A DNA stretch of 64,000 nucleotides from Elainellaceae cyanobacterium (GCA_051117555.1 JBNPEG010000084.1:26933-90932), one strand, 5' to 3'; counted from the stretch's first letter, positions 35,549 through 56,707 are shown. Numbers and translations: made by a program. Notes: generated by a model not told the origin, from the sequence alone.

Positions 35549-35597
35549 TGTCTATGCTTTGACTACACTTCAACCGACCACTTTACAAGGAAAAACC

Positions 35598-37139
35598 ATG
35601 CGTTCTAATCATTTCGTCTCAAATTCTTTCGTTTATGGAGCACTACTATCTACTTTTGCCGCCGTTCTGGCCTCCACCATGTTTGGACTGATTTCCACAA
35701 AAGCCAATGCCAACGGAGCGATCGCCCCGACACGCAGTGCAGGTGCTGCTACTGAGGAAGGCGTTCAGCTCAGCCCTATTGAACAAGAGATTTTAGAAGA
35801 ACATGACAGTCTTATCGAAATGGGGCGAGAACTAGCTGAACTACAACGCATCCCAACTGGCGATCGCACCCCAGAGCAAGAGACAAGAATGGCAGAACTG
35901 CTTCAAGCACAACAGCAGATTAGAGAAGCATTTCAGGAATTTCTTGCACGTCCGGATGTAGAAGCCACCATTGCCCAGTTGAGACAGTCTCAGAGACAAC
36001 AAACCCTTGACCTTCGCTCTATTGAGGCATTGCAAGACAACCTGAGACAGCTCGAACAAGAGGCAGTATTGCTGTATCCGCTTATTCTAGAAGATCGGCT
36101 TGAACTGGTTTTACTGACTGCTGATGCTCCTCCAATTCGTCGCTCTATTAATGTGAGTCAAACAGAACTCAATCAAACAGTTTTAGAATTTCGTCAGGCA
36201 CTACAAAATCCACGTAGTAACCCCCAAACTTCAGCCCAGCAGCTTTATAACTGGCTCATTCAACCTTTTGAAAATGAACTAGAAGCAGCCGATGCTGACG
36301 CAATTCTCTATGCTCCAGATGGTGTTTTGCGTTATGTTCCCCTCGCCGCACTTCACACAGGCGAGCAGTGGTTGGTGGAAAATTACATCGTGAATACCAT
36401 TACGGCTGCGTCTCTCACCGATTTTGGTCAATCTCCCCAGCAGCCACCACGGGTTTTAGCGGCTGCACACACTGAAGGGAGCTTTGAAGTTACAGTAGGC
36501 GATCGCTCATTGCAGCTATCAGGCTTCCAATTTGCAGCTCCAGAAGTCGAAGCGATCGCTGAGTTGATGCCCGACACAACCGTACTTCTTAACGACGAAT
36601 TCACTCCTGATAACCTATTCCTTCAAATGAATGATTACACCATTGTTCATATTGCTGCGAATGTTTGGATTGTCCCTAGTGGCCCAGATGATTCATTTAT
36701 TTTGTTCGGTAATGGCGATCGCGTCTCGTTGTCAGACATGCGGAATTGGAATCTCAGCAACGTAGATTTGCTGGTGTTGAGTGCGTGTGAGACTGGAGTG
36801 GGCGAGACATTGGGCAGTGGAGACGAAATCCTTGGCTTTGGTTACACAGTGCAACGAGCAGGGGCACGAGCGGCAATCGCCCCGCTGTGGCAGGTCGATG
36901 ATTTTGGCACCAAAGAGTTGATGGTGGCGTTTTATCGATCGCTTCAGCAAGGGCAAAGTTATGCAGAAGCGCTGCGGCAAGCTCAACTTTCACTCATTAC
37001 ATTTGAATCAATGCCTGCACCTCGACAGCTCAAAGGAATAGAAGTTGGGGCACCTGTTGAGGCACCTGTAGACAGGCAAGGGCGCTTTAGTCATCCCTAC
37101 TACTGGGCACCGTTTATCCTAATTGGAAATGGGTTATAG
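35598..37139 (+). CDS. exported CHAT-only protein lacking the catalytic His
   Basis: No TPR; HIAANV replaces H(L/I/F)ATH(A/G); LSACETG is kept; AGG RBS before ATG 35598. Confidence 0.85.
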   Translation: MRSNHFVSNSFVYGALLSTFAAVLASTMFGLISTKANANGAIAPTRSAGAATEEGVQLSPIEQEILEEHDSLIEMGRELAELQRIPTGDRTPEQETRMAELLQAQQQIREAFQEFLARPDVEATIAQLRQSQRQQTLDLRSIEALQDNLRQLEQEAVLLYPLILEDRLELVLLTADAPPIRRSINVSQTELNQTVLEFRQALQNPRSNPQTSAQQLYNWLIQPFENELEAADADAILYAPDGVLRYVPLAALHTGEQWLVENYIVNTITAASLTDFGQSPQQPPRVLAAAHTEGSFEVTVGDRSLQLSGFQFAAPEVEAIAELMPDTTVLLNDEFTPDNLFLQMNDYTIVHIAANVWIVPSGPDDSFILFGNGDRVSLSDMRNWNLSNVDLLVLSACETGVGETLGSGDEILGFGYTVQRAGARAAIAPLWQVDDFGTKELMVAFYRSLQQGQSYAEALRQAQLSLITFESMPAPRQLKGIEVGAPVEAPVDRQGRFSHPYYWAPFILIGNGL

Positions 37140-38904: not shown

Positions 38905-39225
38905 ATGTCCACCAGTGAATTAGAGGTTCAGCTACATAATCTAACCCCGGCGCGACGGGCGATCGCCCTCCAAACGCTGACTCAAACTTTAGGCAGCGGT
39001 GCACGGGGGATTACTAAAACAGACGGAGTATGTAGCGGAGAAGCCTGTATCGCTGGAACGCGCATACCCGTTTGGCTTCTTGTGGAGTCTCGTCGTCAAG
39101 GGGTTCGTGAAGCTCAACTACTCAACGACTATTCCCATATTAGTGCGGCTGATTTGGTCAATGCTTGGGCTTATGCAGAGGCTTATCCTGAAGAAATTGA
39201 AGCCGCAATTCAAAAAAATAAATAA
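38905..39225 (+). CDS. DUF433 family protein (antitoxin-like, orphan)
   Basis: GVCSGEACIAGTRIPV motif. Confidence 0.88.
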   Translation: MSTSELEVQLHNLTPARRAIALQTLTQTLGSGARGITKTDGVCSGEACIAGTRIPVWLLVESRRQGVREAQLLNDYSHISAADLVNAWAYAEAYPEEIEAAIQKNK

Positions 39226-39448
39226 TCAAAGACAATCGCTACAAGTGAGCGATCGCCCCCACCAATCAATACCCCATTCGGTACAAACGGTAGGGGCGAA
39301 TCGCGATTCGCCCAGTGCAAAAGGTTTCTATCAATCCAATCATTGAGATAAACGAATCAAAGGGCGATCGCCCCTTTTGTCCATTGCATGTGAATTTAAT
39401 ACGTTGTACGGGCGCACGGCGTACGCCCATCTCCTATGCAAGGTCAAC

Positions 39449-39615
39449 AACGACGTTTGCATGTGCCGCTTCAACGTATGTAGCTCTCGCAACGGCGTTT
39501 GCATGTGCCACTTTGTCGTTGCAGCGCTCAAAAACGACGTTTGCATGTGCCACTTCGACGTATGTAGCTCTCGCAACGGCGTTTACATGTGCCACTTTGT
39601 CGTTGCAGCGCTGAC
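39449..39615. repeat. 42-bp tandem repeat, order A-B-A-B
   Basis: Units start at 39449, 39491, 39533 and 39575; core AACGRCGTTTGCATGTGCCRCTT. Confidence 0.9.
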
Positions 39616-39726
39616 AACGATGTTGCAACGCTTGAATTGGATGTCAGAGCTTAAACTTCAACGCGGATTGCTCAGTTAAGCAATTTTAGACGTATCGCTG
39701 AGCCAATATTCTAGCCATCCCAGAAC

Positions 39727-39794
39727 AGATCCCCGGCTTCTGTTGTAAGTCTCTGACTGATATTAGAGACACTTGATTAAGAAGCCGGGGATCT
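39727..39794. repeat. 68-bp IR element (core orientation B)
   Basis: Same 15-bp arms as 7774-7841 with the core reverse-complemented. Confidence 0.85.
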
Positions 39795-39845
39795 AAACCG
39801 CCATACTTAGGTCGTTGATGAGCAATCCCTAAAGTTTTCTTCAAA

Positions 39846-39873
39846 TTCCATACCCTCTCCTGCACCAGAGATA
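39846..39873 (+). promoter_or_regulatory. TTCCATA-N14-AGAGATA motif
   Basis: Exact match, 37 nt before ATG 39910. Confidence 0.75.
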
Positions 39874-39909
39874 TACACTAATGTCGGTCATTATCCTTCT
39901 GGAGAATTT

Positions 39910-42705
39910 ATGCGCTCTCACCGCTTGCTTGGTTTAGTAACGTCTACGGTTCTGCTGTCGCTTGTTGTTCCGGTATCCTTATCGCTTTCGTTTAGAGAAT
40001 CAGCGGCATTAGCTCAAGAGGCGGGAGAGGGCGATCGCCAAGCAGAAGCTGATGCACTATATCAAGAAGCTCTCCAAGCTTGGCAGCAAAGCCAATATTC
40101 TCAAGCACTGGAAACACTTCAACAGGCATTGGAGATTTATCGAGAGATTGGCGATCGCGCTGGGGAAGGTCGTGCTCTAGGCAATTTGGGCCTTGCTTAC
40201 TTTAGTCTGGGTGACTATCAGCAAGGCATTAACTTCTTTGAGCAAAGCCTTGCCATTGCTCAAGAGATTGGCGATCGCCAAATGGAAGGAACCGCCCTAG
40301 GCAATTTAGGCAATGCTTATCGGGACCTGGGAGACTATCGGCAAGCCATCGACTTCTATGAGCAAAATCTTGCGATTACCCGCGAGATTGGAAACCGTGC
40401 AGGAGAAAGAAGTGCTTTATTTGCTTTGGGATGGTCTTATAACTTTCAAGCTCAGTATCAACTTGCGTTAGATTTTTTTTCACAAGCGCTCACAATCTCA
40501 CAAGACATAGGTGATTTGACTGCAGAAGCTGGTGCGCTTTACGCCCTTGGTTGGACTCATGATGATTTAGGGCAAAGATATGAAGCGATTGAACTTTACC
40601 AACAGGCTTTGGCTTTAGCTAGAGAGGATCAAAATTTTAGTCAAGAAGCACATATTTTGAATGGTTTTGGTTGGGTTTACACTTCACTTGAAGAATATCA
40701 GACGGCAACTAGTTTCTTTCAAAAACAACTGAGGTTAGCAAGAGATATCGGAGACCGTCGTCACGAGGCTAATGCATTGAATGGATTAGGCTTTGTACAT
40801 TCTCGTATAGGAGATTATGAGCAAGCGATTCAATATTCTTCGGAAGCTTTAACGATTCAACGCGAAATAGGCGACCTCCGTGAGCAAGCTTATTCATTGG
40901 GAGATTTAGGAAATATCTATGCGGCTTTGGAGGATTACCAGAAAGCAAATGAATATCTAGTGCATTGCTTACTTATTCAAAGAGAACTTGGTAATCGTTG
41001 GGGAGAGGCAATAACGCTAAGTGACATCGGAAAAATTATGGGAAATCAGAATGAGTCTGAATTAGCAATTGTCTATTTCAAAGAGTCGGTCAGAAGATGG
41101 GAAGAAATCCGTAGTGACATTCAAGGTTTGCCAATTGACAAGCAGGAGTCTTTCGTTGCAACTGTCTCACAGACCTATCGTCGCCTTGCCGACCTCCTCC
41201 TCCAAGAAAACCGAGTGCTTGAAGCCCAGCAAGTGCTTGATTTGCTTAAAGTCCAAGAACTCGATGAATACTTGCACAACGTTCGTGGCCCAGGGCAAGA
41301 CCTCACCATTCTTCGTCCTGAACAAACCATTCTCGACACTTATGGCGAACTGCAAAAATCGGCTATTGAGATCGGTCAAGAACTTGCCCAGCTTCAACAA
41401 AAAGCATCCCAAGGACAGCTCACTCCTCAAGAGACTGAGCGACGCAGCCAACTGATCGCCGTTCAGCAAGACCTCAATCAGGAATTCAACACCTTTGCCC
41501 GTCGAGAAGATGTTCGTGAATTGGTGAACCAACTCAGCTTTGAAGCCCAAGAGCAAGTCGTCAGCCTGGGGCGGCTCGATGCCCTGCGGGATAAGCTCAG
41601 ACAACTCGATGCGGTTATGCTCTATCCTCTGATTCTCGAAGACCGTCTTGAGCTGATCATTACCACTCCCGACTCGCCTCCCCTCCGCCGCACCGTTGAA
41701 AACCTGAGCCAAGCCGAACTCAATCGCGTCATTGTCGAATTTCGCCAAGCCCTACAAAGCCCTCGTTCAAATGCTGAAGCCCCCGCTCAGCAGCTTTATG
41801 AATGGCTGATTGCTCCCATCGAAGCAGACCTTGCCCAAGCCAATCCGCAAACGATTATCTACGCTCCCGATGGTGCATTACGCTATATCTCGTTGGCAGC
41901 TCTGCATGATGGTAATCAGTGGCTGGCCGAGCGCTATCAGGTCAACAACATTACCGCCGCATCGATTGAAGAACTCGTCACCGAACCCCAAGACGCGCCA
42001 CGGGTGCTGGCTGCGGCATTTGCCGATGTCAGTCAAACCTATTCCGTCGAAGTGGGCGATCGCACTATCCCATTCAGCGGCTTACCCTTTGCTGGAACCG
42101 AAGTCGAACGGCTCACCTCAACGCTGTCAGATATTGTCACCTTCGTTGATGACGGGTTCAGCAAAGCAGCCATTGAGTCAGAACTCGGCAACTACAACAT
42201 CATCCATTTTGCAACTCACGCCGCCTTTGTTCCGGGCGATCCGTCTCAGTCTTTCATTCTCTTTGGTAATGGCGATCGCCCAACATTGCGCGATGTTGAA
42301 ACCTGGTCACTAAACACCGTAGATCTAGTGGTGTTGAGTGCCTGCGAGACCGGCTTAGGCGGCTTTGATAATAACGGTGAGCAAATCTTAGGACTGGGGT
42401 ATGTTTTCCAGAATCGAGGCGCACGGGCCGTACTTGCCTCTCTCTGGCAAGTCAACGACGAAGGCACTCAGGTCCTGATGAACGCGTTCTATGAATACTT
42501 GCAGCAAGGCATGAGCAAAGCCGAGGCTCTACAAGCTGCACAGCAAGCATTAATCAGCAACTCCTCTACGGCACAGGAGAGCGATCGCGGCATTGGAATA
42601 GAACTCATTGAAGGTGAGCAGCGGGGAGAAAGTCAGAAGGGCGATCGCTCCCTCAGTCATCCTCACTATTGGGCACCTTTCATTCTGATTGGGAATGGAC
42701 TGTAG
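39910..42705 (+). CDS. signal peptide + TPR array + CHAT protease
   Basis: MRSHR signal; HFATHA and LSACETG. Confidence 0.93.
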   Translation: MRSHRLLGLVTSTVLLSLVVPVSLSLSFRESAALAQEAGEGDRQAEADALYQEALQAWQQSQYSQALETLQQALEIYREIGDRAGEGRALGNLGLAYFSLGDYQQGINFFEQSLAIAQEIGDRQMEGTALGNLGNAYRDLGDYRQAIDFYEQNLAITREIGNRAGERSALFALGWSYNFQAQYQLALDFFSQALTISQDIGDLTAEAGALYALGWTHDDLGQRYEAIELYQQALALAREDQNFSQEAHILNGFGWVYTSLEEYQTATSFFQKQLRLARDIGDRRHEANALNGLGFVHSRIGDYEQAIQYSSEALTIQREIGDLREQAYSLGDLGNIYAALEDYQKANEYLVHCLLIQRELGNRWGEAITLSDIGKIMGNQNESELAIVYFKESVRRWEEIRSDIQGLPIDKQESFVATVSQTYRRLADLLLQENRVLEAQQVLDLLKVQELDEYLHNVRGPGQDLTILRPEQTILDTYGELQKSAIEIGQELAQLQQKASQGQLTPQETERRSQLIAVQQDLNQEFNTFARREDVRELVNQLSFEAQEQVVSLGRLDALRDKLRQLDAVMLYPLILEDRLELIITTPDSPPLRRTVENLSQAELNRVIVEFRQALQSPRSNAEAPAQQLYEWLIAPIEADLAQANPQTIIYAPDGALRYISLAALHDGNQWLAERYQVNNITAASIEELVTEPQDAPRVLAAAFADVSQTYSVEVGDRTIPFSGLPFAGTEVERLTSTLSDIVTFVDDGFSKAAIESELGNYNIIHFATHAAFVPGDPSQSFILFGNGDRPTLRDVETWSLNTVDLVVLSACETGLGGFDNNGEQILGLGYVFQNRGARAVLASLWQVNDEGTQVLMNAFYEYLQQGMSKAEALQAAQQALISNSSTAQESDRGIGIELIEGEQRGESQKGDRSLSHPHYWAPFILIGNGL

Positions 42706-42871
42706 CACTTGATGGGCGATCGCTTATGGCAGGGAAATTGACACATTTTATGTTACTTCATCACGACAATCGAGCCCCTCCATCTTTGTATTTGTCTCTA
42801 CACTGATTCAGAACTATTCGACCACCCTTGACACATAGAAAACTTGTACTTAAAGCTCCCCCATAAACCAA

Positions 42872-43834
42872 ATGACCAAATTGACTAAATTCCTCCTTCA
42901 ATCTGTCGCTGGATGCATCGGTGTCATCTTATTCAGCACTTTTATTTGGACGTTGAGCATTGCGTCACCACTCTCAGCACAAATTCCACTGGATGATGTA
43001 TCGTTTCCGGCTGATATTCAAGCACCGTCTATCGTTGATTTAACGGTGAATCCAGCGTCTTACGTTCCTCCTAATTTAGACCAATCTGAAAATCCAACAG
43101 AGGGGACGCGAGCCCCAATTGGACTGGAAGATCGGGTACCGATGACGAGTAGTAACTATCCTTGGTCTGCCGTCGGTCGCATCATTGGCATCGGAGCCGA
43201 CCAATCTAGCTACTACTGCACTGGAAGCTTAGTGGCAACGGACATCGTGCTGACCAATTCTCATTGCGTCGTTGACCCAGAAACCCATGAACCTAGCATT
43301 GCAATTCAATTTCAACCCAATTTGGTCAACGGCCTTTTACAAGATGAAAATAATGCAGCAGCGGCGATCGCCGTTGAATACGGCACGGACTTCCGAGATG
43401 ATAATGCTGTTCCAAACCCAAATGACTGGGCGTTTATTCAACTTGATAAGCCTCTCGGTGAAATATACGGGACACTCGGCCTTGCGACTCTTTCCGTTGA
43501 AGAGTTAATCGACATCTACGATGGACAGCTTGTCATGGTGGGATATTCGAGAGATTTTCCATCGGATAACCCTGGTGAAACTGCCGGAGCTCATCGGGGA
43601 TGCAGCGTTTTGGGAGAAGTTCGAGATAGCCTGATTCATGAATGTGATTCGTTTGGCGGTGCGTCGGGCGGGCCAATCTTAGCCGACGTCGATGGTGAGC
43701 CTCGAATTGTCGCCCTTCATACGGGTGGGAGAACTCAAGAGTATCGAGAAGAAGGATCGAACTCAACGATTCGCGTCGGCGTTGTTAATTACGCCGTTAA
43801 AATTTCGCGGATTTTAGATGCTGTGAATCAATGA
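42872..43834 (+). CDS. secreted trypsin-like serine protease
   Basis: TNSHC, DWAF and GASGGP. Confidence 0.92.
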   Translation: MTKLTKFLLQSVAGCIGVILFSTFIWTLSIASPLSAQIPLDDVSFPADIQAPSIVDLTVNPASYVPPNLDQSENPTEGTRAPIGLEDRVPMTSSNYPWSAVGRIIGIGADQSSYYCTGSLVATDIVLTNSHCVVDPETHEPSIAIQFQPNLVNGLLQDENNAAAAIAVEYGTDFRDDNAVPNPNDWAFIQLDKPLGEIYGTLGLATLSVEELIDIYDGQLVMVGYSRDFPSDNPGETAGAHRGCSVLGEVRDSLIHECDSFGGASGGPILADVDGEPRIVALHTGGRTQEYREEGSNSTIRVGVVNYAVKISRILDAVNQ

Positions 43835-43848
43835 TAGGAAACTAGATG

Positions 43849-44041
43849 GCGATCGCCCATTCACCCATTGCGTGAAGATTTAATGCATTGCACTGGGCGT
43901 ACGGCGTCATTGGTGTCAACTTAAGCTGAAAGCTCCTATCATGAAAGGCTTTGCTGCGATCGCCCTCACCCCCAACCGCTCTCCCAATTTTGGGAGAGGA
44001 GAGAAAAATGTACGCCGTACGCCCCTGCATACGTTTCATTG
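43849..44041. repeat. REP-like unit interrupted by a nested repeat insertion
   Basis: Aligns with 14689-14770 but carries about 100 extra bp (43908-44009) flanked by GTACGGCGT and GTACGCCGT. Confidence 0.6.
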
Positions 44042-44059
44042 ATTACTGCTGGAGAAATT

Positions 44060-46831
44060 ATGCGTTCTCACCACTTGCTTGGCCTAGTGACTTCTACCAT
44101 TCTGCTGTCACTCATTGTCCCAGTTCCTGTTTTGCTATCGCTTGGAGAATCAACAGTTCTGGCTCAAGATGTGGGAGAAAGCGATCGCCAAGCTGACGCT
44201 GACGCTTTGTTCCAGCAATCAATTCGGGCCGGGCAGCAAGGTGACTATCAACAAGCGCTAGGAATGCTTCAGCAAGCCTTGGTAATTTACAGAGAGACTG
44301 GTAATCATCGTGGAGAAGGACTGACGTTAAGAGCCTTAGGAGCTATTTCAAACCGAATTCATCAGTATTCTCAGGCACTCGAATACTATCAACAAGCGTT
44401 AGATGTATTTTCTGAACTTGGCGATCGCTTGAGTGAAAGTACTGTTCTTAACAGAATGGGTTTAATTTACGACAATCTAAACCAATATCAGCAGGCTCTA
44501 GCTTCTTATCAGCAGGCGTTAGACATCAGTTCTGAGATTAGTATCCGTGAAGCATTTCCACAGGAAAGTCGTTCCGAACAAAGTAATGCTTTCAATAACA
44601 TTGCTGCCGTCTACTTCGACTTAGGTCAATATCAAGAGGCACTCAACTATTTTCAGCAAGCATTAGTTGTTGATATTGAACTAGGTGATCGACGCGGGGA
44701 AAGCACTATCCTCAACAATATTGGTGCCGTCTATGATAACCTCGGTCAATATCAGCAAGCTCTAGCCTCTTATCAACAGGCTCTGGCAATCGCGTCTGAA
44801 ATTGAATATCCTTCAGGAGAAGGTACTGCCTTAACCAATATTGGATTGGTCTACGCCAACTTGGGCCAATATCAACAGGCCCTCAACTCTCACCAACAGG
44901 CTTTGACTATCTTTACTGAGATTGGCAATCTTCAAGGGGAAGGATCTGCACTGACCAACATAGGTGCAGCATACCGCCACTTAGACCAATATCAGCAAGC
45001 TCTAGATGCCCATCGCTGTGCTTTAACTATTTTCACTGAAATCAACGATCGTCAAGGGCAAGGTTTCGCTTTCAATAATATTGGCTCGCTCTACGATAAC
45101 CTCGGCCAGTATGAGCAAGCTCTAGATTCTTATCATCAGGCGTTGCTCATTCTAGCTGAGCTTGGCAATCGCCGAGGTGAAGGTGTTACGCTTCATGGCA
45201 TTGGATTGGCGCATCAAAACTTAGGTCAGTATGAACAAGCACTGGAGTATTATCAACAATCCATCACGATCAGTATTGAGATTGGCGATCGCCGGGGTGA
45301 AGGCAGTACGCTCCATAATATTGGTGCTGTGTATTTAGAAACAGGACGCTATGCTGATGCAGAACAAACACTGTTTGAAGCATTGGCAGTACTGGAATCT
45401 TTGAGAGATGAGGATTTGGACGATGTCGATAAAGTCGCTTTATTTGAGACCCAACTCAATATCTACGAACTCCTCCAGCAAACCCTAACAACTCAAGGAA
45501 ACAATGAAATTGCTCTAGAGATTGCGGAACGCGGACGGGCACGCATCATGGTCGAGCTTCTGACCGAACAAGCTTCAGATCGCTTGTCACAAGAGATTTT
45601 CAGTGATGTACCTACTGTAGAAGAAATTCAGCACATTGCTCAGCAGCAGAACGCTACCCTCGTCAACTACTCCTTAATCAACTCAGGCGTGGGTGATCCA
45701 GCACTCTACATCTGGGTCGTACAACCAGATGGAACTATTGACTTTGTTGAAGTTCCCCTCAGCGACACTGAAACCCATACTCCATTCCGTAATCCGATCG
45801 CTCAGCTTGATGGTGCCTTCTATCGCGGGATATCTCGACCTGACGTGAGTTCTCCACTCGTCGCCGATCTCCGTTCTGCCCTTGGCACCGATCGCGGCAT
45901 TGAATTGGTTAGAACCGATGATGCCGAAACCACCAACCGCCTCCAAGAATTTCACCATCTTCTTATTGATCCGATCGCCCACCTCCTGCCTACTGACCCT
46001 AACGAGAAAGTCGTTTTTATTCCTCAAGGTAGCTTGTTTCTCATCCCCTTCGCCGCCCTCCAAGACGACAACGGGACCTATTTGATCGAACGTCATACGA
46101 TATTGACTGCACCCTCTATTCAAGTCTTAGGGCTCACTCAAGACATCCAAGCTAGTCTGAGCCGCGATCGTGTTCAATTCAGCGATTTAACAACCGAGGA
46201 AATGTTGATTGTTGGCAACCCCACCATGCCAGAAGCTTGGAACCCCGACAACTCTGAAATGGAGCAGTTGAGTCCTCTTCCGGGTGCCGAACGGGAGGCC
46301 AACGCGATCGCCCGCTTCCTCAACACCCATTCTCTTACTGGAGATGCGGCCACCGAGACCCAAATCCGGCAGCAGATACAAACTGCCCGGTTAATTCATT
46401 TAGCAACCCACGGGTTACTACAATACGGCATTCCTCAGGAGTCAGGAGTGAGAGACATACCCGGCGCAATCGCGTTAGCTCCCGGTAGCAGAGACGATGG
46501 ATTGCTCACGTCTGCCGAAATTCTAACTCTTGATCTTAATGCCGAATTAGTTGTATTAAGTGCCTGTGATACCGGACGAGGGGATATTCGAGGAGATGGA
46601 GTGATCGGTCTGTCGCGATCGCTCATCACAGCGGGAGTACCCAGCATTGTGGTCTCTCTGTGGCAGGTGCCCGATACTCCGACTGCTAATCTAATGACGG
46701 AATTTTATCGTCAGCTTCAGCAATCACCCGATAGAGCCGAAGCGTTACGACAAGCGATGCTGATTACAATGCAGGATCATCCCCATCCGATTAACTGGGC
46801 TGGATTCACGCTAATCGGGCAAGCAAATTAA
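44060..46831 (+). CDS. signal peptide + TPR array + CHAT protease (ERGRAR subtype)
   Basis: MRSHH signal after a GGAGA RBS; HLATHG and LSACDTG. Confidence 0.93.
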   Translation: MRSHHLLGLVTSTILLSLIVPVPVLLSLGESTVLAQDVGESDRQADADALFQQSIRAGQQGDYQQALGMLQQALVIYRETGNHRGEGLTLRALGAISNRIHQYSQALEYYQQALDVFSELGDRLSESTVLNRMGLIYDNLNQYQQALASYQQALDISSEISIREAFPQESRSEQSNAFNNIAAVYFDLGQYQEALNYFQQALVVDIELGDRRGESTILNNIGAVYDNLGQYQQALASYQQALAIASEIEYPSGEGTALTNIGLVYANLGQYQQALNSHQQALTIFTEIGNLQGEGSALTNIGAAYRHLDQYQQALDAHRCALTIFTEINDRQGQGFAFNNIGSLYDNLGQYEQALDSYHQALLILAELGNRRGEGVTLHGIGLAHQNLGQYEQALEYYQQSITISIEIGDRRGEGSTLHNIGAVYLETGRYADAEQTLFEALAVLESLRDEDLDDVDKVALFETQLNIYELLQQTLTTQGNNEIALEIAERGRARIMVELLTEQASDRLSQEIFSDVPTVEEIQHIAQQQNATLVNYSLINSGVGDPALYIWVVQPDGTIDFVEVPLSDTETHTPFRNPIAQLDGAFYRGISRPDVSSPLVADLRSALGTDRGIELVRTDDAETTNRLQEFHHLLIDPIAHLLPTDPNEKVVFIPQGSLFLIPFAALQDDNGTYLIERHTILTAPSIQVLGLTQDIQASLSRDRVQFSDLTTEEMLIVGNPTMPEAWNPDNSEMEQLSPLPGAEREANAIARFLNTHSLTGDAATETQIRQQIQTARLIHLATHGLLQYGIPQESGVRDIPGAIALAPGSRDDGLLTSAEILTLDLNAELVVLSACDTGRGDIRGDGVIGLSRSLITAGVPSIVVSLWQVPDTPTANLMTEFYRQLQQSPDRAEALRQAMLITMQDHPHPINWAGFTLIGQAN

Positions 46832-46833
46832 GC

Positions 46834-47484
46834 TTATACAGACTGGACTGCATCTGAAGTTAGAACGGTAGATTCTCCTGAAATAATGCCAATGAGAATG
46901 CGGAATAGCGGGTCTAGCTCCTCTGGAATGCGATAGAGGGTCGGGTCTTCTATCAAATGTTTGGGCGATCGCTGAAAGATACCAAACTGCCAAATTTGTC
47001 CAGTGCTCACCGCGCCATAGAGAATAGGAGTTTCGCTCTCCGTCCACTGATCAAGGGCGACGAGTTCGGCTCCAAGTTGAGTAAAGCCTGCATACAGGTT
47101 TTCCCGTTTTGCTTCAATAATCAGCAGATTGCTGGCCTGAAAGTAGTAATCCAAGGTGCCCCTCAGCCAATTGCTAATCGTTAGCGGATACTCAACCCGC
47201 ACTTTTTGCTGAGTTTGCCGACACACTTCACTGAGAATTGGCGCAATCAAAAATTCGCGCCGTGCTTGTTCGCTGCTGATTGTTGTAAATTGAAAGGCTG
47301 CATTCAGGCGATCGCACAATTCTTGTAACTGCAACTCTCCACTGTAGTAGGGCAAAGAGAGCCGCTGCATGGCGACTGTGCATCCGAGATCCGCTAGAAT
47401 GTCATCCCGCTCATAGGGCAATTCTGCATAGCGAGCAAAGGTGTAGGTCTCCTCCGGCTTGAGAATTTTGGGCTTGCGAGACAT
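46834..47484 (-). CDS. PD-(D/E)XK-like hypothetical protein
   Basis: GTLDY..LLIIEAK, GFTQL, YGAVSTGQIWQF. Confidence 0.75.
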   Translation of the reverse strand: MSRKPKILKPEETYTFARYAELPYERDDILADLGCTVAMQRLSLPYYSGELQLQELCDRLNAAFQFTTISSEQARREFLIAPILSEVCRQTQQKVRVEYPLTISNWLRGTLDYYFQASNLLIIEAKRENLYAGFTQLGAELVALDQWTESETPILYGAVSTGQIWQFGIFQRSPKHLIEDPTLYRIPEELDPLFRILIGIISGESTVLTSDAVQSV

Positions 47485-47595
47485 GATGACTTCTTTAGCT
47501 GATTGGTTTTCTCCATTCTAAAGCGGTTCTCAAGGGATTCATCCAGGCATAGATTCTCTTGTTAGACTGAAAGCAACTGTTCTGGATGTTGCCTT

Positions 47596-48234
47596 ATGGT
47601 CGCAGGGTCTAGTATTACAGAATCCATTAAAAGCATTCATGATTTGCAGAGCCAGTTTAACCTGCGGCAGACTGAGCACGATGACTTCTTCCATGAATGG
47701 ACGGGTTCTCTGCCTCGTCTAAATGAATTTGAGGAAGCTGGCGTTGAGCGCATCAAGCGTCGATATGACTACCATCGCGTTGATGGATTACTGCTTGAGG
47801 GCACGATTAATGTCGTGGTGGCTGCCCCCCTACTCGAATTAGCAGGATTTCTTGACCCACCGTTTCACATCCAATCTCCCTATGGCATTGCCCTAGAACT
47901 TGATGATCCTGATGAAACAATTCGCGGATTTATTGACGTACTGGTCGTTCAAGAGCAGCTTTGGATTTTAGTCGTCGAGTCAAAGCGCACTAGCATTCCT
48001 GTTCCAGCAGCATTACCTCAACTGCTGGCCTATATGCTGGCGAGTCCTCACTCAGAACGGCCTATATTTGGGATGGCAACGAATGGGGATGAGGTCGTGT
48101 TTCTCAAGCTTCAGCACGGCCAACAGCCAGAGTATGACGCTTCTCGAACGTTTTCCCTGTTTCCACGACGCCATGAATTGGGTGAAGTCTTGCAAATCAT
48201 GAAACGTCTAGGCCATGTTATTTTAAACGATTAG
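47596..48234 (+). CDS. PD-(D/E)XK protein, HsdR-N-like
   Basis: GFIDVLV..LVVESKR, ALPQLLAYM, GMATNG. Confidence 0.78.
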   Translation: MVAGSSITESIKSIHDLQSQFNLRQTEHDDFFHEWTGSLPRLNEFEEAGVERIKRRYDYHRVDGLLLEGTINVVVAAPLLELAGFLDPPFHIQSPYGIALELDDPDETIRGFIDVLVVQEQLWILVVESKRTSIPVPAALPQLLAYMLASPHSERPIFGMATNGDEVVFLKLQHGQQPEYDASRTFSLFPRRHELGEVLQIMKRLGHVILND

Positions 48235-48341
48235 CCGTTCTAGAACGTTGATGTTGGCGATCGCCCCTTTTGTCCATTGCATGTGAATTTAATACGTTGT
48301 ACGGGCGCACGGCGTACGCCCATCTCCTATGCAAGGTCAAC

Positions 48342-48466
48342 AACGACGTTTGCATGTGCCGCTTCAACGTATGTAGCTCTCGCAACGGCGTTTGCATGTG
48401 CCACTTCGTCGTTGCAGCGCTCAAAAACGACGTTTGCATGTGCCACTTTGTCGTTGCAGCGCTGAC
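48342..48466. repeat. 42-bp tandem repeat, order A-B-B
   Basis: Units start at 48342, 48384 and 48426. Confidence 0.88.
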
Positions 48467-48573
48467 AACGATGTTGCAACGCTTGAATTGGATGTCAGAG
48501 ACTAGACTTCGATGCGATCCAGTTAGGCAATTTTAGACGTATCGCTGAACCAATATTCTAGCCATCCCAGAAC

Positions 48574-48641
48574 AGATCCCCGGCTTCTGTTGTAAGTCTC
48601 TGACTGATATTAGAGACACTTGATTAAGAAGCCGGGGATCT
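48574..48641. repeat. 68-bp IR element (core orientation B)
   Basis: Identical by eye to 39727-39794. Confidence 0.85.
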
Positions 48642-48691
48642 AAACCGCCATATCAGGTCGCTGATGAGCAATCCCTAAAGTTTTCTTCAAA

Positions 48692-48719
48692 TTCCATACC
48701 CTCTCCTGCGTCAGAGATA
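48692..48719 (+). promoter_or_regulatory. TTCCATA-N14-AGAGATA motif
   Basis: Exact match, 37 nt before ATG 48756. Confidence 0.75.
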
Positions 48720-48755
48720 TACACTAATGTCGGTCATTATCCTGCTGGAGAATTT

Positions 48756-51700
48756 ATGCGCTCTCACCGCTTGCTTGGTTTAGTGACGTCCACAGTTCTG
48801 CTGTCGTTTGTTGTTCCGGTATCCTTGTCGCCGTCGTTTAGAGAATCAGCGGCATTAGCTCAAGAGGCGGGAGAGGGCGATCGCAAAGCCGAAGCTGATG
48901 CACTCTTTAATGGCTCAATTCAGTTTTGGCAGCGAGGCGACTATCAACAAGCGCTATCGATGCTTCAACAAGCGTTAGAGATTTATCGAGAGATTGGCGA
49001 TCGCCGTGGGGAAGGAGCCACCCTCACTGGCATTGGCGCGGTGTATCGCAATCTGGGTCAGTACTCTCAAGCCCTTGACTATTATCAGCAAGCATTAGAA
49101 ATCAATATTGAAACTGGCGATCGCCAGGGAGAAGGCACCACCCTCAACAACATTGGCGTGGTGTACGACAGTCTGGGTCAATATCAACAAGCGCTGGACT
49201 ATTACCAGCAAGCCTTAGCCATCCGAACTGACATTGGCGATCGCCGTGGAGAAGGAGTCACCCTCAACAACATTGGCGCGGTGTACGACAATCTGGGTCA
49301 GTATCAGCAAGCGCTGGACTACTATCAGCAAGCCTTAGCCATCACAACTGTCATTGGCGATCGATCCGATGAAGGGAATATCCTCGACAACATTGGCCAG
49401 GTGTATCACAATCTGGGTCAGTATCAGCAAGCGCTGGACTACTATCAGCAAGCCTTAGCTATCCGAACTGACATTGGCGATCGCCGTGGAGAAGGCACCA
49501 CCCTCAACAACATTGGCGGGGTGTACGACAGTCTGGGTCAGTATCAGCAAGCGCTGGACTACCTTCAGCGAGCCTTAGCCATCAGCATTGACATTGGCGA
49601 TCGATCTGGAGAAGGCACCACCCTCAACAACATTGGCGGGGTGTACGACAGTCTGGGTCAGTATCAGCAAGCGCTGGACTACTATCAGCAAGCCTTAGCC
49701 ATCCGAACTGACATTGGCGATCGCCGTGGAGAAAGAGTCACCCTCAGCAACATTGGTGAGGTGTATCGCAATCTCGGTCAGTATCAGCAAGCACTGGGCT
49801 ACTTTCAGCGAGCCTTAGCCATCAGCATTGACATTGGCGATCGCGCTGGAAAAGGAATAGCCCTTAATAGTATTGGCGCGGTGAGTGGCAATCTCGGTCA
49901 GTATCAGCAAGCACTGGACTACTTTCAGCGAGCCTTAGCCATCAGCATTGACATTGGCGATCGATCTGGAGAAGGCACCACCCTCAACAACATTGGCGGG
50001 GTGTACGACAGTCTGGGTCAGTATCAGCAAGCGCTGGACTACTATCAGCAAGCCTTAGCCATCCGAACCGAAGTGGGCGATCGCCGTGGAGAAGGACGGA
50101 CCCTCAACAACATTGGCTTGGTGTATCGCAAGCTGGGTGAGTATCAGCAAGCGCTGAACCACTATCAGCAAGCCTTAGCCATCCGAACTGAAGTGGGCGA
50201 TCGTTCTGGTGAAGGAGTCACCCTCAACAACATTGGCGTGGTGTACGACAGTCTGGGTCAATATCAACAAGCGCTGGACTATTACCAGCAAGCCTTAGCC
50301 ATCCGAACTGACATTGGCGATCGCGCGGGTGAAGGAACCACCTTCAACAACATCGGTGCGGTGTATCGCGATCTGGGTCAGTATCAGCAAGCGCTGGACT
50401 ATTATCAGCAAGCCTTAGCCATCACAACTGTCATTGGCGATCGCCGTGGAGAAGGACGGACCCTCAACAACATTGGCTTGGTGTACGACAGTCTGGGTGA
50501 GTATCAGCAAGCGCTGGACTATTACCAGCAAGCCTTAGTCATCATCACTGACATTGGCGATCGCGCGGGTGAAGGAGCCACCCTCAACAACATTGGTTAT
50601 ACGCTAGAGTCGCTTGGTCAGTCTGAATTAGCAATTGTTTTTCTCAAAGAATCCGTCAACCAGTGGGAAGAAATTCGCGGTGACATTCGCGGACTTTCCA
50701 TTGAACAGCAGCAGTCTTTTGCAGACAGCATTTCATCCAGCTATCGTCGTCTCGCCGACCTCCTCCTGCAAGCCGATCGCGTCCTCGAAGCCCAACGAGT
50801 CCTTGACCTGCTCAAAGTCCAAGAGCTTGACGAATACTTGCAAGATGTCCAGCGCAGTGCCCAAACCGAAGACGGAGTTCCACTATCTAATCCTGAAGTA
50901 CAAATTCAAGAGCGTCAGCAAGCTATTACCAATCGAGCCGTTGCCATTGGTGAAGAACTGGCTCAACTCCGTCAAATCGAGCCTGAAAATCGCACGCCAG
51001 AGCAGATGGCTCGCATCACCGAACTAGAAGCAATGCAGGCTGAAGTCATTGCCGAGTTTGAAGACTTTATCTACAGTGATGAAATCCAGGCACTGGTGGC
51101 TCAGCTTACCCGCGAGACTCGTCCCCAAGATTTGGTCAATGAACTCGATGAACTGATCACTATTCAAGACAACCTCCGCGCCCTCGAACAAAACGCAGTG
51201 TTGCTCTATCCGTTGATTCTCGACGATCGCATTGAACTTGTGCTCGTAACGCCTAACAGTCCACCAGCCCGCTATCCCATCAACGTCAGCCGCAGCGAAC
51301 TCAATGCCGCCATCGTCGAGTTTCGACAGGCATTAGAAACACCCACTAGCAATCCAGAAGCGATCGCCCAACAGCTCTACAACTGGCTGATTCAACCCCT
51401 CGCATCAGACCTCGAAGCCATCAACGCCGAAACCATCATCTACGCTCCTGATGGCGTACTGCGCTACGTGCCCCTAGCCGCTCTGCATGATGGCGATCGC
51501 TGGTTAGCCGAACGCTTTCGCGTCAACCACATCACCGCCGCCAGCCTCACCAATCTCAACCTACAGCCAGCCGCTCAGCCTGACATTTTAGCGGCTGCCT
51601 TTAGCGAAGGCTCCGTTGAATTTCAAGTGGGCGATCGCAACTTTGCCTTTGATGGGTTGCCCTATGCAGGTCAAGAAGTCGAAAACTTGGTCGCGGCGTT

Positions 51701-52295
51701 TCCTGGAACCACCAAGCTAATGGACGAAGACTTTAGCCCCACCGCAACCGTGGGCATCATGGATGACCACACCATCGTCCACCTGGCAACCCACGCCGAA
51801 TTTGTGCAAGGCACTCCTGCCGAGTCATTCATCGTGTTTGGCAATGGCGATCGCGTCACCCTCGAAGAAATTAAGCAGTGGCGAGGTCGCTTTCGGCAGA
51901 TTGATTTGATTGTGCTAAGTGCCTGTGAGACAGGTCTAGGAGAAAGCTTGGGTAACGGGGAGGAAATTCTCGGCTTTGGCTACCTAATGCAGCGGGCAGG
52001 CGCACGAGCGGCGATCGCGTCTCTCTGGGCTGTGAGCGACGGAGGCACTCAAAACCTAATGGATGCCTTCTACACTGCTATTCTCAATGGCTACAGCAAA
52101 ACCGAAGCCTTGCAACGAGCGCAAGTGGCTCTAATCCGCAATGACGCATCGGTGTTAGAACCATCCCAGCGAGGCATTCAGCTCGAATCCACCGAAACAG
52201 GTGAACCCTTGGAAATTCAGAGCAGATCCCTGCAAGGACGCCTCGGTCATCCCTACTATTGGGCTCCCTTCATCCTCATCGGTAACGGACTATGA
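48756..52295 (+). CDS. signal peptide + long TPR array + CHAT protease
   Basis: About 14 near-identical 120-bp TPR units; HLATHA and LSACETG. Confidence 0.93.
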   Translation: MRSHRLLGLVTSTVLLSFVVPVSLSPSFRESAALAQEAGEGDRKAEADALFNGSIQFWQRGDYQQALSMLQQALEIYREIGDRRGEGATLTGIGAVYRNLGQYSQALDYYQQALEINIETGDRQGEGTTLNNIGVVYDSLGQYQQALDYYQQALAIRTDIGDRRGEGVTLNNIGAVYDNLGQYQQALDYYQQALAITTVIGDRSDEGNILDNIGQVYHNLGQYQQALDYYQQALAIRTDIGDRRGEGTTLNNIGGVYDSLGQYQQALDYLQRALAISIDIGDRSGEGTTLNNIGGVYDSLGQYQQALDYYQQALAIRTDIGDRRGERVTLSNIGEVYRNLGQYQQALGYFQRALAISIDIGDRAGKGIALNSIGAVSGNLGQYQQALDYFQRALAISIDIGDRSGEGTTLNNIGGVYDSLGQYQQALDYYQQALAIRTEVGDRRGEGRTLNNIGLVYRKLGEYQQALNHYQQALAIRTEVGDRSGEGVTLNNIGVVYDSLGQYQQALDYYQQALAIRTDIGDRAGEGTTFNNIGAVYRDLGQYQQALDYYQQALAITTVIGDRRGEGRTLNNIGLVYDSLGEYQQALDYYQQALVIITDIGDRAGEGATLNNIGYTLESLGQSELAIVFLKESVNQWEEIRGDIRGLSIEQQQSFADSISSSYRRLADLLLQADRVLEAQRVLDLLKVQELDEYLQDVQRSAQTEDGVPLSNPEVQIQERQQAITNRAVAIGEELAQLRQIEPENRTPEQMARITELEAMQAEVIAEFEDFIYSDEIQALVAQLTRETRPQDLVNELDELITIQDNLRALEQNAVLLYPLILDDRIELVLVTPNSPPARYPINVSRSELNAAIVEFRQALETPTSNPEAIAQQLYNWLIQPLASDLEAINAETIIYAPDGVLRYVPLAALHDGDRWLAERFRVNHITAASLTNLNLQPAAQPDILAAAFSEGSVEFQVGDRNFAFDGLPYAGQEVENLVAAFPGTTKLMDEDFSPTATVGIMDDHTIVHLATHAEFVQGTPAESFIVFGNGDRVTLEEIKQWRGRFRQIDLIVLSACETGLGESLGNGEEILGFGYLMQRAGARAAIASLWAVSDGGTQNLMDAFYTAILNGYSKTEALQRAQVALIRNDASVLEPSQRGIQLESTETGEPLEIQSRSLQGRLGHPYYWAPFILIGNGL

Positions 52296-56430: not shown

Positions 56431-56706
56431 ATGACTCGACTCAAACAGCGATTTCAAAGTTTTGAGGAATACCTGTCTTATGAGGATGAGACAGATGACC
56501 TCTATGAGCTATTTAATGGGGAATTGATTGCGGTGCCACCTGAATCTGGCTTGAATGTTGAGATTGCCAATTTTCTATTTGCAACGCTGTTGCCGATTGT
56601 CGGCTACCGCCGCCTCAGAGGCCACAGACTAGAACTCGAAGTTCGAGGAGAACCGAGAAACCGTTATCCTGATCTGACTGTGATTCAGGAAAAACATATT
56701 GAGCAG
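56431..56706 (+). pseudogene. Uma2 endonuclease, 3'-truncated
   Basis: FEEYL, YELFNGELIAVPPES, RYPDLTV, then an abrupt switch to CHAT sequence. Confidence 0.8.
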
Positions 56707-56707
56707 T

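Follow-up and report, generated by a model that had tools for sequence, protein, structure and literature searches.

Introduction

Several described systems resemble the locus that we analyze here. In bacterial multigene families, ectopic gene conversion leaves a tract of near-identity in otherwise diverged paralogs, whose closest relatives then differ from segment to segment. A second system involves HIP1, the function of which has been debated for about thirty years. According to the excerpts of the reports cited, a HIP1-flanked 352-bp excision at smtB of Synechococcus PCC 6301 was attributed to illegitimate recombination between HIP1 repeats (PMC13756078), HIP1 promoted excision between cloned sequences (PMC13756078, PMC4390886), there were hints of HIP1-linked site-specific and illegitimate recombination (PMC4390886), and HIP1 gave a Chi-like boost of homologous integration (10.1101/2024.09.10.611283). 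In these excerpts and in that of PMC5861425, the links between HIP1 and recombination concern a selected deletion, plasmid events and transformation assays only. Putative mobile promoters (PMPs), as outlined in the part of the source used here, share at least 80% identity over at least 50 nt upstream of several genes, and the class leaves out paralogous coding pairs (Nijveen, Matus-Garcia, van Passel 2012, PMC3575422). REPIN/MITE-like repeats have conserved inverted arms, a variable spacer and dispersed copies. In integrons, bounded units pair expression signals with varied coding bodies; the gene cassettes are usually promoterless, and an integrase, attC sites and arrays of unrelated cassettes are typical.

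The DNA analyzed is a stretch of 64,000 nucleotides from an Elainellaceae cyanobacterium (GCA_051117555.1 JBNPEG010000084.1:26933-90932), hereafter the window. A first-pass annotation had described in it a portable HIP1-to-HIP1 cassette that carries a promoter, an RBS and a signal peptide and would recruit new TPR-CHAT bodies into a putative regulon and an export pathway. We find that this "cassette" is probably the intergenic region plus the signal-peptide codons of a tandemly clustered TPR-CHAT family that is subject to duplication, decay and ectopic recombination.

Extent of the shared tract

The module, from M1 to the signal-peptide codons, occurs at genes A and B (Table 1). In the alignment of A (39364-40058) with B (48257-48904), 625 of 648 aligned bases are equal (96.5% identity); there are 23 mismatches and 47 gap columns, chiefly one 42-nt unit by which the array in A is longer than that in B. 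The near-identity of 39364-40038 and 48257-48884 proposed by the first-pass annotation was confirmed, and its right limits were moved to 40058 and 48904. No relation is seen between the two loci to the left of the HIP1 (39364/48257). On the right, the similarity had been said to fade about 20 nt after the next HIP1, and a sharp drop is indeed seen there: high identity stops at about 40058, some 20 nt past the HIP1 at 40031-40038, and mismatches rise from 23/648 within the tract to 52/190 in the next 200 nt after 40058/48904 (Fisher p 1e-19). Weak paralog similarity persists beyond this point to 40169. Within the tract, divergence grows from left to right (1/235, 6/218 and 9/149; left versus right, p 0.001), with A/B identities of 99.6% from the HIP1 to the array end, 97.2% over the IR element, promoter and UTR, and 94.0% over the first 50 codons.

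Table 1. Coordinates of the parts of the module and of the family members in the window, counted from its first letter.
Feature	Position	Strand	Description
M0	39249-39363	+	115-nt segment, HIP1 on both sides; REP-like hairpin at 39294-39313
M1	39364-39440	+	starts with HIP1 39364-39371, the left limit of A/B identity
Tandem array	39444-39624	+	21/42/84-nt units (TRF periods 21, 42 and 84)
Divergent patch	39641-39690	+	84.8% A/B identity, inside the near-identical tract
IR element	39727-39794	+	15-nt inverted arms (AGATCCCCGGCTTCT and complement), 38-nt loop
Promoter/5'UTR block	39795-39909	+	common to A, B, C and F; to E from 39828
Signal-peptide-like N-terminus	39910-40058	+	MRSHRLLG...ALAQE; HIP1 40031-40038 encodes GDR
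Gene A	39910-42705	+	TPR-CHAT, 931 aa
Copy B of module	48257-48904	+	order of parts as in A
Gene B	48756-52295	+	TPR-CHAT, 1179 aa
Copy C	7665-8099	+	remnant: M1, IR element with inverted loop, promoter block, 47-codon signal-peptide ORF 7956-8099
Gene D	43849-46831	+	ATG 44060; M1 from HIP1 43849, split by an insert of about 100 nt
Gene E	3400-6657	-	1085 aa, intact; 3400-6942 with upstream parts
Remnant F	28070-28356	+	upstream of gene 28510-31800; M0, right IR arm 28165-28181, promoter block
Remnant G	57845-58116	+	array abuts the end of the signal-peptide region, then B/E-like first TPR
H	14689-14842	+	E-like M1 and promoter block, 81.8% over 154 nt, upstream of gene 14870-17725

Similarity therefore does not extend evenly through the two genes; the mismatch frequency steps from 3.5% to 27% at one point. 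Such a step is left unexplained if the genes are plain whole-gene duplicates whose 5' regions were held alike by purifying selection on regulation or export. It is true that, among A, B, C, E and F, conservation is highest in the promoter/5'UTR block, and that 6 of the 9 codons that differ between A and B in the signal region are synonymous. However, selection does not account for 234/235 identity across the array and spacer, the promoter block of the dead copy C is still 94-96% like those of A and B, and the CHAT tree described below is incongruent with whole-gene duplication, which we consider very improbable.

The near-identity of A and B over about 650-700 bp would instead result from recent copying of the 5' segment of one paralog over that of the other. 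This could have been gene conversion or an equivalent replacement, as a double crossover or a one-sided, homology-anchored replacement would look alike. The direction may have been from a B-like gene to A, as suggested solely by G and E sharing the body type of B. The copied tract would run left to the HIP1 at the start of M1, where shared homology ends, and would stop in the coding region about 20 nt past the GDR-encoding HIP1.

It could be argued that collapsed or chimeric repeat joins in the draft, for example swapped flanks, mimic mosaic genes, since the draft has 256 contigs and exact repeats between A and B reach about 150 nt. Yet A and B differ by 23 substitutions and a 42-nt indel and hence were resolved as separate loci, the mosaic tracts, at 80-93% identity, lie beyond collapse by an assembler, and in sequencing runs of two other studies there are contigs in which related modules have an unchanged order of parts over 39720-40058. 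An assembly artefact is scarcely credible as the source of these patterns.

Parts of the module

The module is a composite: two of its parts, the IR element and the 21/42-nt array, are repeats in their own right that occur across the genus. This is also a warning that "cassettes" of this kind can be assemblies of independent small repeats.

M0 is also found at E (6942-6830, minus strand) and F (28070-28145), whereas B, C, D and H lack it. Its hairpin has a fold z of -3.4 with one compensatory pair in F, and further copies of the hairpin core were found with nhmmer on contigs C15, C160, C171 and C221. M1 has six copies, all in the window (A, B at 48257, C at 7665, D at 43849, H at 14689 and, on the minus strand, E at 6837). 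The "REP hairpin" previously placed in M1 at 39403-39432 did not withstand analysis (z -0.44; 57 of 200 shuffles fold as well), and the M1 consensus fold is weak. M0 and M1 taken together as one large palindrome around HIP1 39364 were rejected too, as only about 22 nt are palindromic.

The reported 42-bp array was borne out by TRF. A degenerate copy is present in G (57845-57975), and the unit family also occurs at G000 C204 and on contig C33 of the congener G002. Two ORFs in these arrays (39377-39679 and 57758-58282) were discarded as genes because they merely read through repeats.

The IR element is real, with a DNA fold z of -7.9. Paired copies number 21 in this genome, with loops of 31-38 nt, and thirty loci were found in other cyanobacterial genomes, including copies with exact arms. 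The two conserved 15-nt inverted arms, the variable spacer and the dispersed copies are reminiscent of REPIN/MITE-like repeats. In contrast to these, the IR loops (31-39 nt) are almost entirely unrelated between copies, and no target duplication is evident at the IR copies. As to the association of REPINs with a RAYT-type Y1 transposase, one of the five Y1_Tnp genes (C152:420-1226) has an adjoining IR copy, 51 nt upstream. In copy C (7774-7841) the loop is reverse-complemented.

Among the expression signals claimed for the cassette, the GGAGA RBS motif is present at 39901-39905 and the MRSHRLLG start at 39910. The promoter motif fared less well: a consensus scan calls no sigma-70-like site inside the cassette, and what is seen is a conserved TATA-like box at 39872-39879. 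The 5'UTR was not considered a structured RNA, given a consensus fold of -10.9 kcal/mol with a double change in 2 of 24 pairs. In Rfam, no family reached its gathering score in the window, and matches in 39200-40100 were at chance level only (E 0.8-3.8). Compared with shuffles, the whole leader has a somewhat better fold (z -3.3), for which the IR element and the array account.

Copies and remnants in the cluster

Every copy of the module lies inside a cluster of about ten TPR-CHAT paralogs in 52 kb, and all genes of the family carry both TPR and CHAT domains. The partial copies that had been listed in the regions of E, F, D and G exist, with refined limits. Upstream of gene E (similarity segments 6942-6777 and 6740-6395, minus strand) are M0 and M1 (6942-6766) and the promoter block (6740-6658), with the array and the IR element absent. 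Remnant F (28070-28145 and 28165-28356) has a decayed 43-codon signal ORF from 28295. Gene D (43849-43916 and 44046-44319) has a promoter region of its own, and family similarity is back at -13 (MRSHHLLG). H is a partial copy additional to those listed earlier; the 5'UTR and signal peptide of the gene behind it (14870-17725, hereafter g14870) differ from the family module.

The third copy, C, had been reported at 7665-8084 with HIP1 ends and without the array, and both ends are indeed at HIP1s, with similarity over 7665-8085. At the HIP1 8077-8084 it is joined to a CHAT C-terminal fragment (8087-8443), which is in a different frame and has Tyr in place of the catalytic Cys. The joint itself forms a perfect palindrome of 24 nt (8069-8092), and no paralog aligns to the joint region. 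Birth and death of copies is visible in remnants C, F and G and in two CHAT fragments, and judged from its sequences the TPR-CHAT family is most likely a lineage-specific family evolving in this way.

The claim that copy ends are non-random holds in part. Every copy has a HIP1 at its outer left end, but the right joints vary: they lie at about -28 in g14870, at about codon 21 in F, at +148 in A and B, and at the HIP1 itself in C. The copies do not have one common pair of ends.

Mosaic structure of the paralogs

The near-identical 5' modules of A and B had been noted to be fused to different TPR-CHAT bodies, and the CHAT ancestries of the two genes do differ. In the CHAT tree, B groups with g14870 (support 95/95), A with g23060 (87/89) and E with g28510 (100/100). 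AU tests, which were run after the tree was seen, reject cassette-bearing clades of A, B, D and E (p 4e-74), of A, B and E (7e-14) and of A and B (1e-7); the tree presumes a single history per domain, yet the CHAT domain contains an exchange tract.

Sliding-window scans show that the nearest relatives change segment by segment along A and along B. Gene A is B-like to 40058 and g28510-like over 40140-40409, and its CHAT domain is nearest to that of g23060. Gene B has an A-like 5' end, E-like TPRs over about 48905-50640 (80-93% identity) and a g14870-like CHAT domain. Over their whole bodies (residues 33-931), the A and B proteins are 47.6% identical. Besides the A/B tract, there are exchange tracts between A 40140-40409 and g28510 29778-30047 (90.7%) and between g14870 17387-17718 and g23060 25805-26136 (87%), which makes three inter-gene tracts, at 87-96.5% identity. 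Other segments were probably exchanged in the same manner, which would leave each gene pieced together from promoter, signal, TPR and CHAT parts.

These observations match ectopic gene conversion in that the paralogy extends beyond the tract, the tract is far more alike than its flanks, and the phylogenies are incongruent. The locus differs from such families in two respects: some 550 nt of the tract are non-coding and contain two unrelated repeats, and its left limit, like the outer limit in every locus, is a HIP1.

HIP1 at the joints

All eight outer left ends are on a HIP1 (8/8, distance 0), and the right joint of copy C is 1 nt from one, while in the window as a whole 3.3% of positions are within 3 nt of a HIP1. 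None of the internal joints is at a HIP1 (distances 11-326 nt), and of the four ends of the A/g28510 tract only one has a HIP1. The HIP1 signal in the family does not consist of independent events: with the homologous M1 ends taken as a single joint, and likewise the M0 ends, HIP1s are found at 3 of 18 joints (p 0.02). Homologous exchange alone fails to explain seven loci with unrelated left flanks that have a HIP1 as their common starting point. In B, C, D and H one HIP1 precedes M1, and their left flanks are unrelated to those of A, E and F.

Segments that were gained or lost have a HIP1 at both ends in two cases, M0 (between the HIP1s at 39249 and 39364) and copy C (between those at 7665 and 8077). 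M0, present or absent between loci, and the deletion joint of C are reminiscent of the smtB excision as described in the cited excerpt (PMC13756078). The footprints found here differ from that selected deletion in being natural duplications and exchanges in a gene family. For M0 a simple HIP1-to-HIP1 excision would be no more than a candidate, as the copies without M0 have other left flanks than those of M0.

The association is also seen genome-wide. At 382 low-copy repeat ends, HIP1 is in the last 10 nt of 18, compared to a mean of 5 per 10-nt bin. Among the end pairs listed, 9 of 14 have a HIP1 in both partners together with unrelated outer flanks, and 7 of these 9 lie outside the window. 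The low-copy subset replaced a test on all HSP ends, which was noisy from periodic repeat families (HIP1 at 7.6% versus 1.2-6.0% at shifted positions, with strong periodicity).

Taken together, this suggests that HIP1 is a preferred joint, possibly through 8-10 bp of microhomology or as a break or initiation site, and that this preference would be layered on ordinary homology-driven exchange. The broader proposal that HIP1 is a preferred joint or initiation site for segmental duplication and exchange throughout the genome, which the TPR-CHAT cluster uses for module shuffling, is more tentative and we would not bet on it. If HIP1 does have a role in recombination, then the repeat boundaries, the presence or absence of M0, the deletion joint of C and the polarity of A/B divergence are its natural footprints. 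The proposal makes a computable prediction, an excess of HIP1 at repeat boundaries across HIP1-rich genomes, which is based on every outer family boundary being a HIP1 and on the seven unrelated repeat pairs in the same genome. Should the HIP1 link fail replication, an ordinary mosaic paralog family remains.

Distribution of the module

In this genome no copy of the module was found outside the cluster, the IR element and the array being all that occurs elsewhere, and in 40 relatives nothing was matched beyond these two repeats. The module N-terminus was found in 0 of 20 relatives and, among 829 candidates from a database of 5.8e9 proteins, only in the A, B and E of the window itself; the best CHAT matches of congeners are 35-41% identical. 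Exact-pattern scans with two module motifs gave 0 hits in metagenome contigs, and the first motif gave 0 in genome contigs. Contigs from the sequencing runs of the two other studies (five DNA rows) are 85-99% alike, none spanning the stretch; each row accounts for 0.05-0.09 of the sampled words, and 40066-40250 is covered by no contig. No RNA run was among the matches listed. In a run labelled as soil metagenome, a 94%-alike copy (X1 record 7) spans 39720-40050 and continues past the module into an LLQQGIQQ-type body (translation of 30 letters), a body type that carries other N-termini in this genome.

Portability of the cassette is not supported. A true HIP1-delimited promoter, RBS and signal unit, which captures new bodies by HIP1-directed movement, either site-specific or nuclease-initiated, would agree with the HIP1s at all outer left ends and at both ends of M0 and of copy C, with the module being on bodies of different CHAT ancestry and with the LLQQGIQQ-type body in X1 record 7. 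However, no copy is outside the cluster or upstream of a gene other than a TPR-CHAT paralog or its remnant, the right joints vary, paralog-level similarity goes on past the supposed right end, the module is a composite with nested insertions of independent repeats, and no recombinase or transposase Pfam domain was found among the 30 window ORFs scanned. We regard such a unit as unlikely. The hallmarks of a mobile element, namely unrelated contexts, the same two ends in each copy and an associated recombinase, were thus not observed in the cluster and the 30 ORFs scanned. Two Uma2 nuclease-like genes are present in the window.

The upstream similarity itself is of the PMP type, since A, B, C and F are 79-97% identical over -115 to -1 and H is comparably close to E. 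Also PMP-like, by the portion of PMC3575422 cited above, is g14870, which combines an E-type promoter block with another 5'UTR and signal peptide. Unlike PMPs as delimited there, all downstream genes are TPR-CHAT paralogs rather than non-paralogous coding sequences, and the shared piece extends into the coding region. In contrast to integron cassettes, there is no integrase, attC-like site or array of unrelated cassettes here, and the shared part is the promoter side.

Export and diversity

Repeated exchange of segments among many paralogs and truncated copies could also be a diversification system, comparable to antigenic-variation cassettes, in which exchange among genes and the silent remnants C, F and G was selected to vary a repertoire of exported proteases. 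The lineage-specific character of the family and its setting, with putatively exported proteases among trypsin-like, caspase-like and ShlB-type genes, agree with this. On the other hand, exchanges are scarce and for the most part old, a single expression site is lacking, and the remnants are decayed and not kept as donors, copy C being out of frame and without its catalytic Cys. We consider selected diversification distinctly unlikely. The favored reading, a clustered family under duplication, decay and ectopic recombination, describes what is most likely a lineage-specific family of putatively exported, caspase-like proteases, built from exchangeable promoter, signal, TPR and CHAT segments.

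The proposed recruitment of new bodies into an export pathway is unnecessary, because all ten paralogs (10/10) have signal-peptide-like N-termini of their own. On a crude hydropathy measure, the N-terminus of each is basic and leads into a hydrophobic stretch of 15 residues (mean hydropathy 1.9-2.6); most carry an A-x-A-Q site. By this measure the signal of the module is of the Sec type, having a 15-mer with a mean hydropathy of 2.4, two Arg residues ahead of it, and ALAQE.

Near-identical 5' segments in two divergent genes

The TPR-CHAT genes A (39910-42705) and B (48756-52295) carry 5' segments, 39364-40058 and 48257-48904, that are 96.5% identical (625 matches, 23 mismatches and 47 gap columns, the last chiefly one additional 42-nt unit in A). 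The observation is real: the two segments were compared in a three-way alignment, counted column by column and then aligned globally. As the first-pass annotation had described, the near-identity starts at a HIP1 and fades after the next HIP1. To the left of the HIP1s at 39364 and 48257 the flanks of A and B are unrelated, and at 40058/48904 there is a sharp step, past which 52 of 190 positions are mismatched (p 1e-19). Similarity at the level of paralogs persists to 40169, and the two proteins align over their whole length with 47.6% identity. Within the tract, which is otherwise 97-99.6% identical, a 50-nt patch (39641-39690 / 48492-48537) shows 84.8% identity and may represent either unconverted sequence or the abutment of two tracts. 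Two elements that had been read into the segment found no support: the stretch labelled "REP hairpin" (39403-39432) is no more stable when folded than its shuffled versions (z -0.44), and a consensus promoter scan calls no promoter inside the segment.

Composition and distribution of the module

The shared 5' module consists of several successive parts, which are distributed unevenly over genes A, B, D and E (minus strand), the remnants C, F and G, and a partial copy, H. The repeats are nested across the copies: there are none in E, the IR element is present in C and F, and the array in A, B and G. This pattern suggests that a simpler ancestral leader was enlarged by one insertion after another.

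Parts and copies of the shared 5' module, with related repeats (window coordinates unless a contig is named)
Feature	Location	Description
M0	39249-39363	HIP1 at both borders; hairpin z -3.4, one compensatory change in copy F
M1	39364-39440	
Tandem array	39444-39624	21/42/84-nt units
Spacer	between array and IR element	contains the divergent patch
IR element	39727-39794	perfect 15-nt arms; z -7.9
Promoter/5'UTR block	39795-39909	conserved; TATA-like box 39872-39879, GGAGA 39901-39905
Signal-peptide-like codons	to HIP1 40031-40038	this HIP1 encodes GDR
Copy B		all parts of A's module except M0
Copy C	7665-8099	M1, IR element, promoter block, signal codons
Copy D		M1 (split), signal codons
Copy E		M0, M1, promoter block, signal codons; no array, no IR element
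Copy F		M0, right IR arm, promoter block, ~21 signal codons
Copy G		array, end of signal region
Copy H	14689-14842, upstream of gene 14870	M1, E-like promoter block, then other 5'UTR and N-terminus
Other IR elements	48574-48641, 7774-7841	
Other arrays	57845-57975; C204 of this genome (L054), 3005-3266; C33 of congener G002 (L002), 1504-1695	
Seven low-copy repeat pairs	C11, C20/C21, C28/C63, C86/C132, C182/C251, C187/C256, C248	start exactly at HIP1 in both copies; unrelated to the cluster, outer flanks unrelated

A BLASTN search of the source genome (6.06 Mb, 48.8% GC, 256 contigs; the window is C13:26933-90932) placed all module copies inside the window, outside which matches were limited to the IR element (contigs C249 and C95) and the array (C204). 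Across 40 related genomes no module match was found beyond the IR element and the array, both in two congeners. The first 55 residues had no counterpart in any of 20 relatives, and the first 60 matched, among 829 candidates from a collection of 5.8 billion proteins, nothing but A, B and E of the window itself. Two congeners and one family member gave CHAT-domain matches that reach, at best, 35-41% identity. Judged by these comparisons, the TPR-CHAT family is a lineage-specific expansion.

Four sequencing runs, which come from two studies and are labelled soil metagenome, also yielded contigs with module pieces that are 85-99% alike; none of these contigs spans the whole stretch. One such contig of 440 nt covers 39720-40050 and then departs from A, continuing as an LLQQGIQQ-type body (in a translation of the letters displayed); the continuation of another is an E/B-type body. 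An assembly artefact is unlikely, although the flanks may conceivably have been assigned wrongly.

Mosaic structure of the TPR-CHAT genes

There are about ten TPR-CHAT genes in the window. All 17 CHAT domains of the genome were placed in a maximum-likelihood tree. There the partner of B is g14870, that of A is g23060 and that of E is g28510 (paralogs named by their window start), and D lies on a long branch; the four cassette-bearing genes are scattered. AU tests, chosen after the tree had been seen, reject joint clades of A, B, D and E (p 4e-74), of A, B and E (p 7e-14) and of A and B (p 1e-7). The tree in turn averages over different segments, since a tract of raised identity between g14870 (17387-17718) and g23060 (25805-26136), 87% over 332 nt, lies at the 3' end of the CHAT domain. 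Plain duplication combined with constraint is contradicted by this tree as well as by the identity step at 40058/48904, which takes the place of the even similarity that a simple duplication would show.

A scan for the best relative in sliding 150-nt windows found B to be A-like from 48257 to ~48905 (94-100% identity), E-like from ~48905 to 50640 (80-93%) and nearest to the g14870 group past 50690 (70-87%). A is B-like to 40058, g28510-like at 40130-40430 (94-98%) and unique thereafter, with a CHAT domain nearest to those of g23060 and g32870. Its raised-identity tract with g28510 (40140-40409 / 29778-30047; 90.7% over 270 nt) lies in the TPR region. The "cassette" is a 5' module of composite make-up that mosaic paralogs have exchanged with one another.

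The window also contains three trypsin-like genes, a caspase-DUF4384 gene, a CHASE2-CHAT gene adjoining DUF1822, a subtilase, an RTX/CAP protein, a ShlB-type transporter and two Uma2 genes. The three trypsin-like paralogs (31865-32821, 42872-43834 and 55231-56241; 43-50% identical, with signal-peptide-like N-termini) each follow a TPR-CHAT or caspase gene, which suggests that the duplicated unit was often a protease pair. In an alignment of the CHAT C-terminal parts, paralog 35532-37139 has HIAANV where others have H-x-A-T-H and may therefore lack the catalytic histidine. The DUF1822 and CHAT-CHASE2 genes, in that order, occupy 10020-13822 within the cluster, and an unannotated 502-residue ORF (8496-10004) lies ahead of them.

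HIP1 at joints and repeat ends

HIP1 (GCGATCGC) occurs at 9156 sites in the genome, one per 662 nt, and at 149 sites in the window, one per 430 nt. At every locus the outer left limit of family homology coincides exactly with a HIP1 (the M1 start in B, C, D and H, the M0 start in A, E and F), with mutually unrelated left flanks. All definable internal joints are 11-326 nt away from a HIP1. Against a window background of 3.3% for a position within 3 nt of a HIP1, 8 of 23 joints fall at HIP1 if each locus is counted (p 4e-7) and 3 of 18 if homologous ends are counted once (p 0.02).

A first genome-wide test on all repeat ends was noisy. Among low-copy repeat ends across the genome, 18 of 382 had a HIP1 in the last 10 nt, compared with a mean of 5 per 10-nt bin (0-11 in the other bins; Poisson p 5e-6, or 2e-4 without the three window ends). 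In 9 of 14 inspected end pairs, 7 of these outside the window, HIP1 was present in both partners and the outer flanks were unrelated. The coincidence of family boundaries with HIP1 needs more than homology, and the recurrent HIP1 boundary is the sole feature deserving follow-up.

There is precedent in the literature: published work describes a 352-bp excision at smtB flanked by HIP1 (PMC13756078), gives indications of HIP1-linked site-specific and illegitimate recombination as well as precise insertion of SDR5 into HIP1 (PMC4390886, PMC5861425), and reports a Chi-like stimulation of homologous integration (10.1101/2024.09.10.611283). Judged by title or abstract opening, none of the papers listed in searches on HIP1 and recombination dealt with HIP1 at the borders of natural duplications or conversion tracts.

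Origin of the shared segments

Ectopic recombination or gene conversion in a tandem birth-and-death family would account most simply for the shared segments. The type of body that follows the signal peptide is common to B, E and G and different in A, from which we infer that a B-like 5' segment overwrote that of A. Because B has no M0, such a tract would have been unable to reach left of the M1 HIP1. The A/B divergence increases from left to right (1/235, 6/218, 9/149); initiation at the left end would suit this trend, which is based on few sites. HIP1 could act as an 8-10 bp microhomology at an illegitimate joint whose opposite side is anchored by homology, an option that resembles homology-facilitated illegitimate recombination. 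Alternatively, breakage or initiation might occur at palindromes centred on HIP1.

The proposal of a mobile, portable HIP1-to-HIP1 cassette is only partly right. The left boundary at HIP1 and the exchange of the module among bodies stand, but no copy was found beyond the cluster, the right ends differ among copies, and none of the 30 ORFs of the window that were scanned had a recombinase domain, which makes a mobile cassette improbable. A diversification system under selection would be possible but has no support.

Export and regulation

The cassette had also been thought to recruit new bodies into an export pathway. However, all ten TPR-CHAT paralogs, and not only those that bear it, already have signal-peptide-like N-termini, with a basic N-terminus and a hydrophobic 15-mer (mean hydropathy 1.9-2.6, a crude measure); most also have an A-x-A-Q motif. 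The module is hence not needed to bring a body into putative export. Since g14870 keeps an E-type promoter block and does not keep the signal, promoter block and signal codons are, on sequence grounds, separable. A, B and E may plausibly be co-regulated.

The IR element and the array as repeats

In this genome the arms of the IR element occur as 21 pairs, around loops of 31-38 nt that are mostly unrelated among copies. Over the family as a whole the inverted 15-nt arms are perfectly conserved and the loops measure 31-39 nt. Exact arms occur at 30 loci in records of Elainellaceae, Oculatellaceae, Thermoleptolyngbya, Stenomitos and other cyanobacteria, again with unrelated loops. The loop of C is the reverse complement of the A/B loop (33 of 38 bases), with flanks unchanged. 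Of the five Y1-transposase genes, one (C152:420-1226) has a copy 51 nt upstream of it, and none adjoins the other four.

The array has a 21-nt unit with the core TTTGCATGTGCCAC, which is repeated in tandem at three other intergenic sites as well. The C204 array (11 copies) lies 485 nt upstream of a gene for a 404-residue membrane protein and that of G002 133 nt upstream of a gene for a TPS-domain secretion substrate; both are oriented relative to the gene as in A/B, each pointing to the downstream gene. The 21-nt arrays could be protein-binding sites or merely satellites. Weak copies of the M0 hairpin core are present on several contigs.

Remnants

The remnants are products of decay within the family. 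The signal ORF of C (7956-8099) has a stop just past HIP1, and the CHAT C-terminal fragment that follows is in another frame with the catalytic Cys changed to Tyr; a second CHAT fragment is found at 56699-57061. The right joint of C, a deletion joint, lies at a HIP1 on which a perfect 24-nt palindrome (8069-8092; z -6.1) is centred, so that the bases 3' of HIP1 mirror those 5' of it. A fold-back or template-switch event would leave such a pattern. CHAT fragment 8087-8443 is near a Uma2 gene (6955-7530), and fragment 56699-57061 is near another (57065-57646); the two Uma2-family proteins, putative restriction endonucleases, are only 31% identical to each other.
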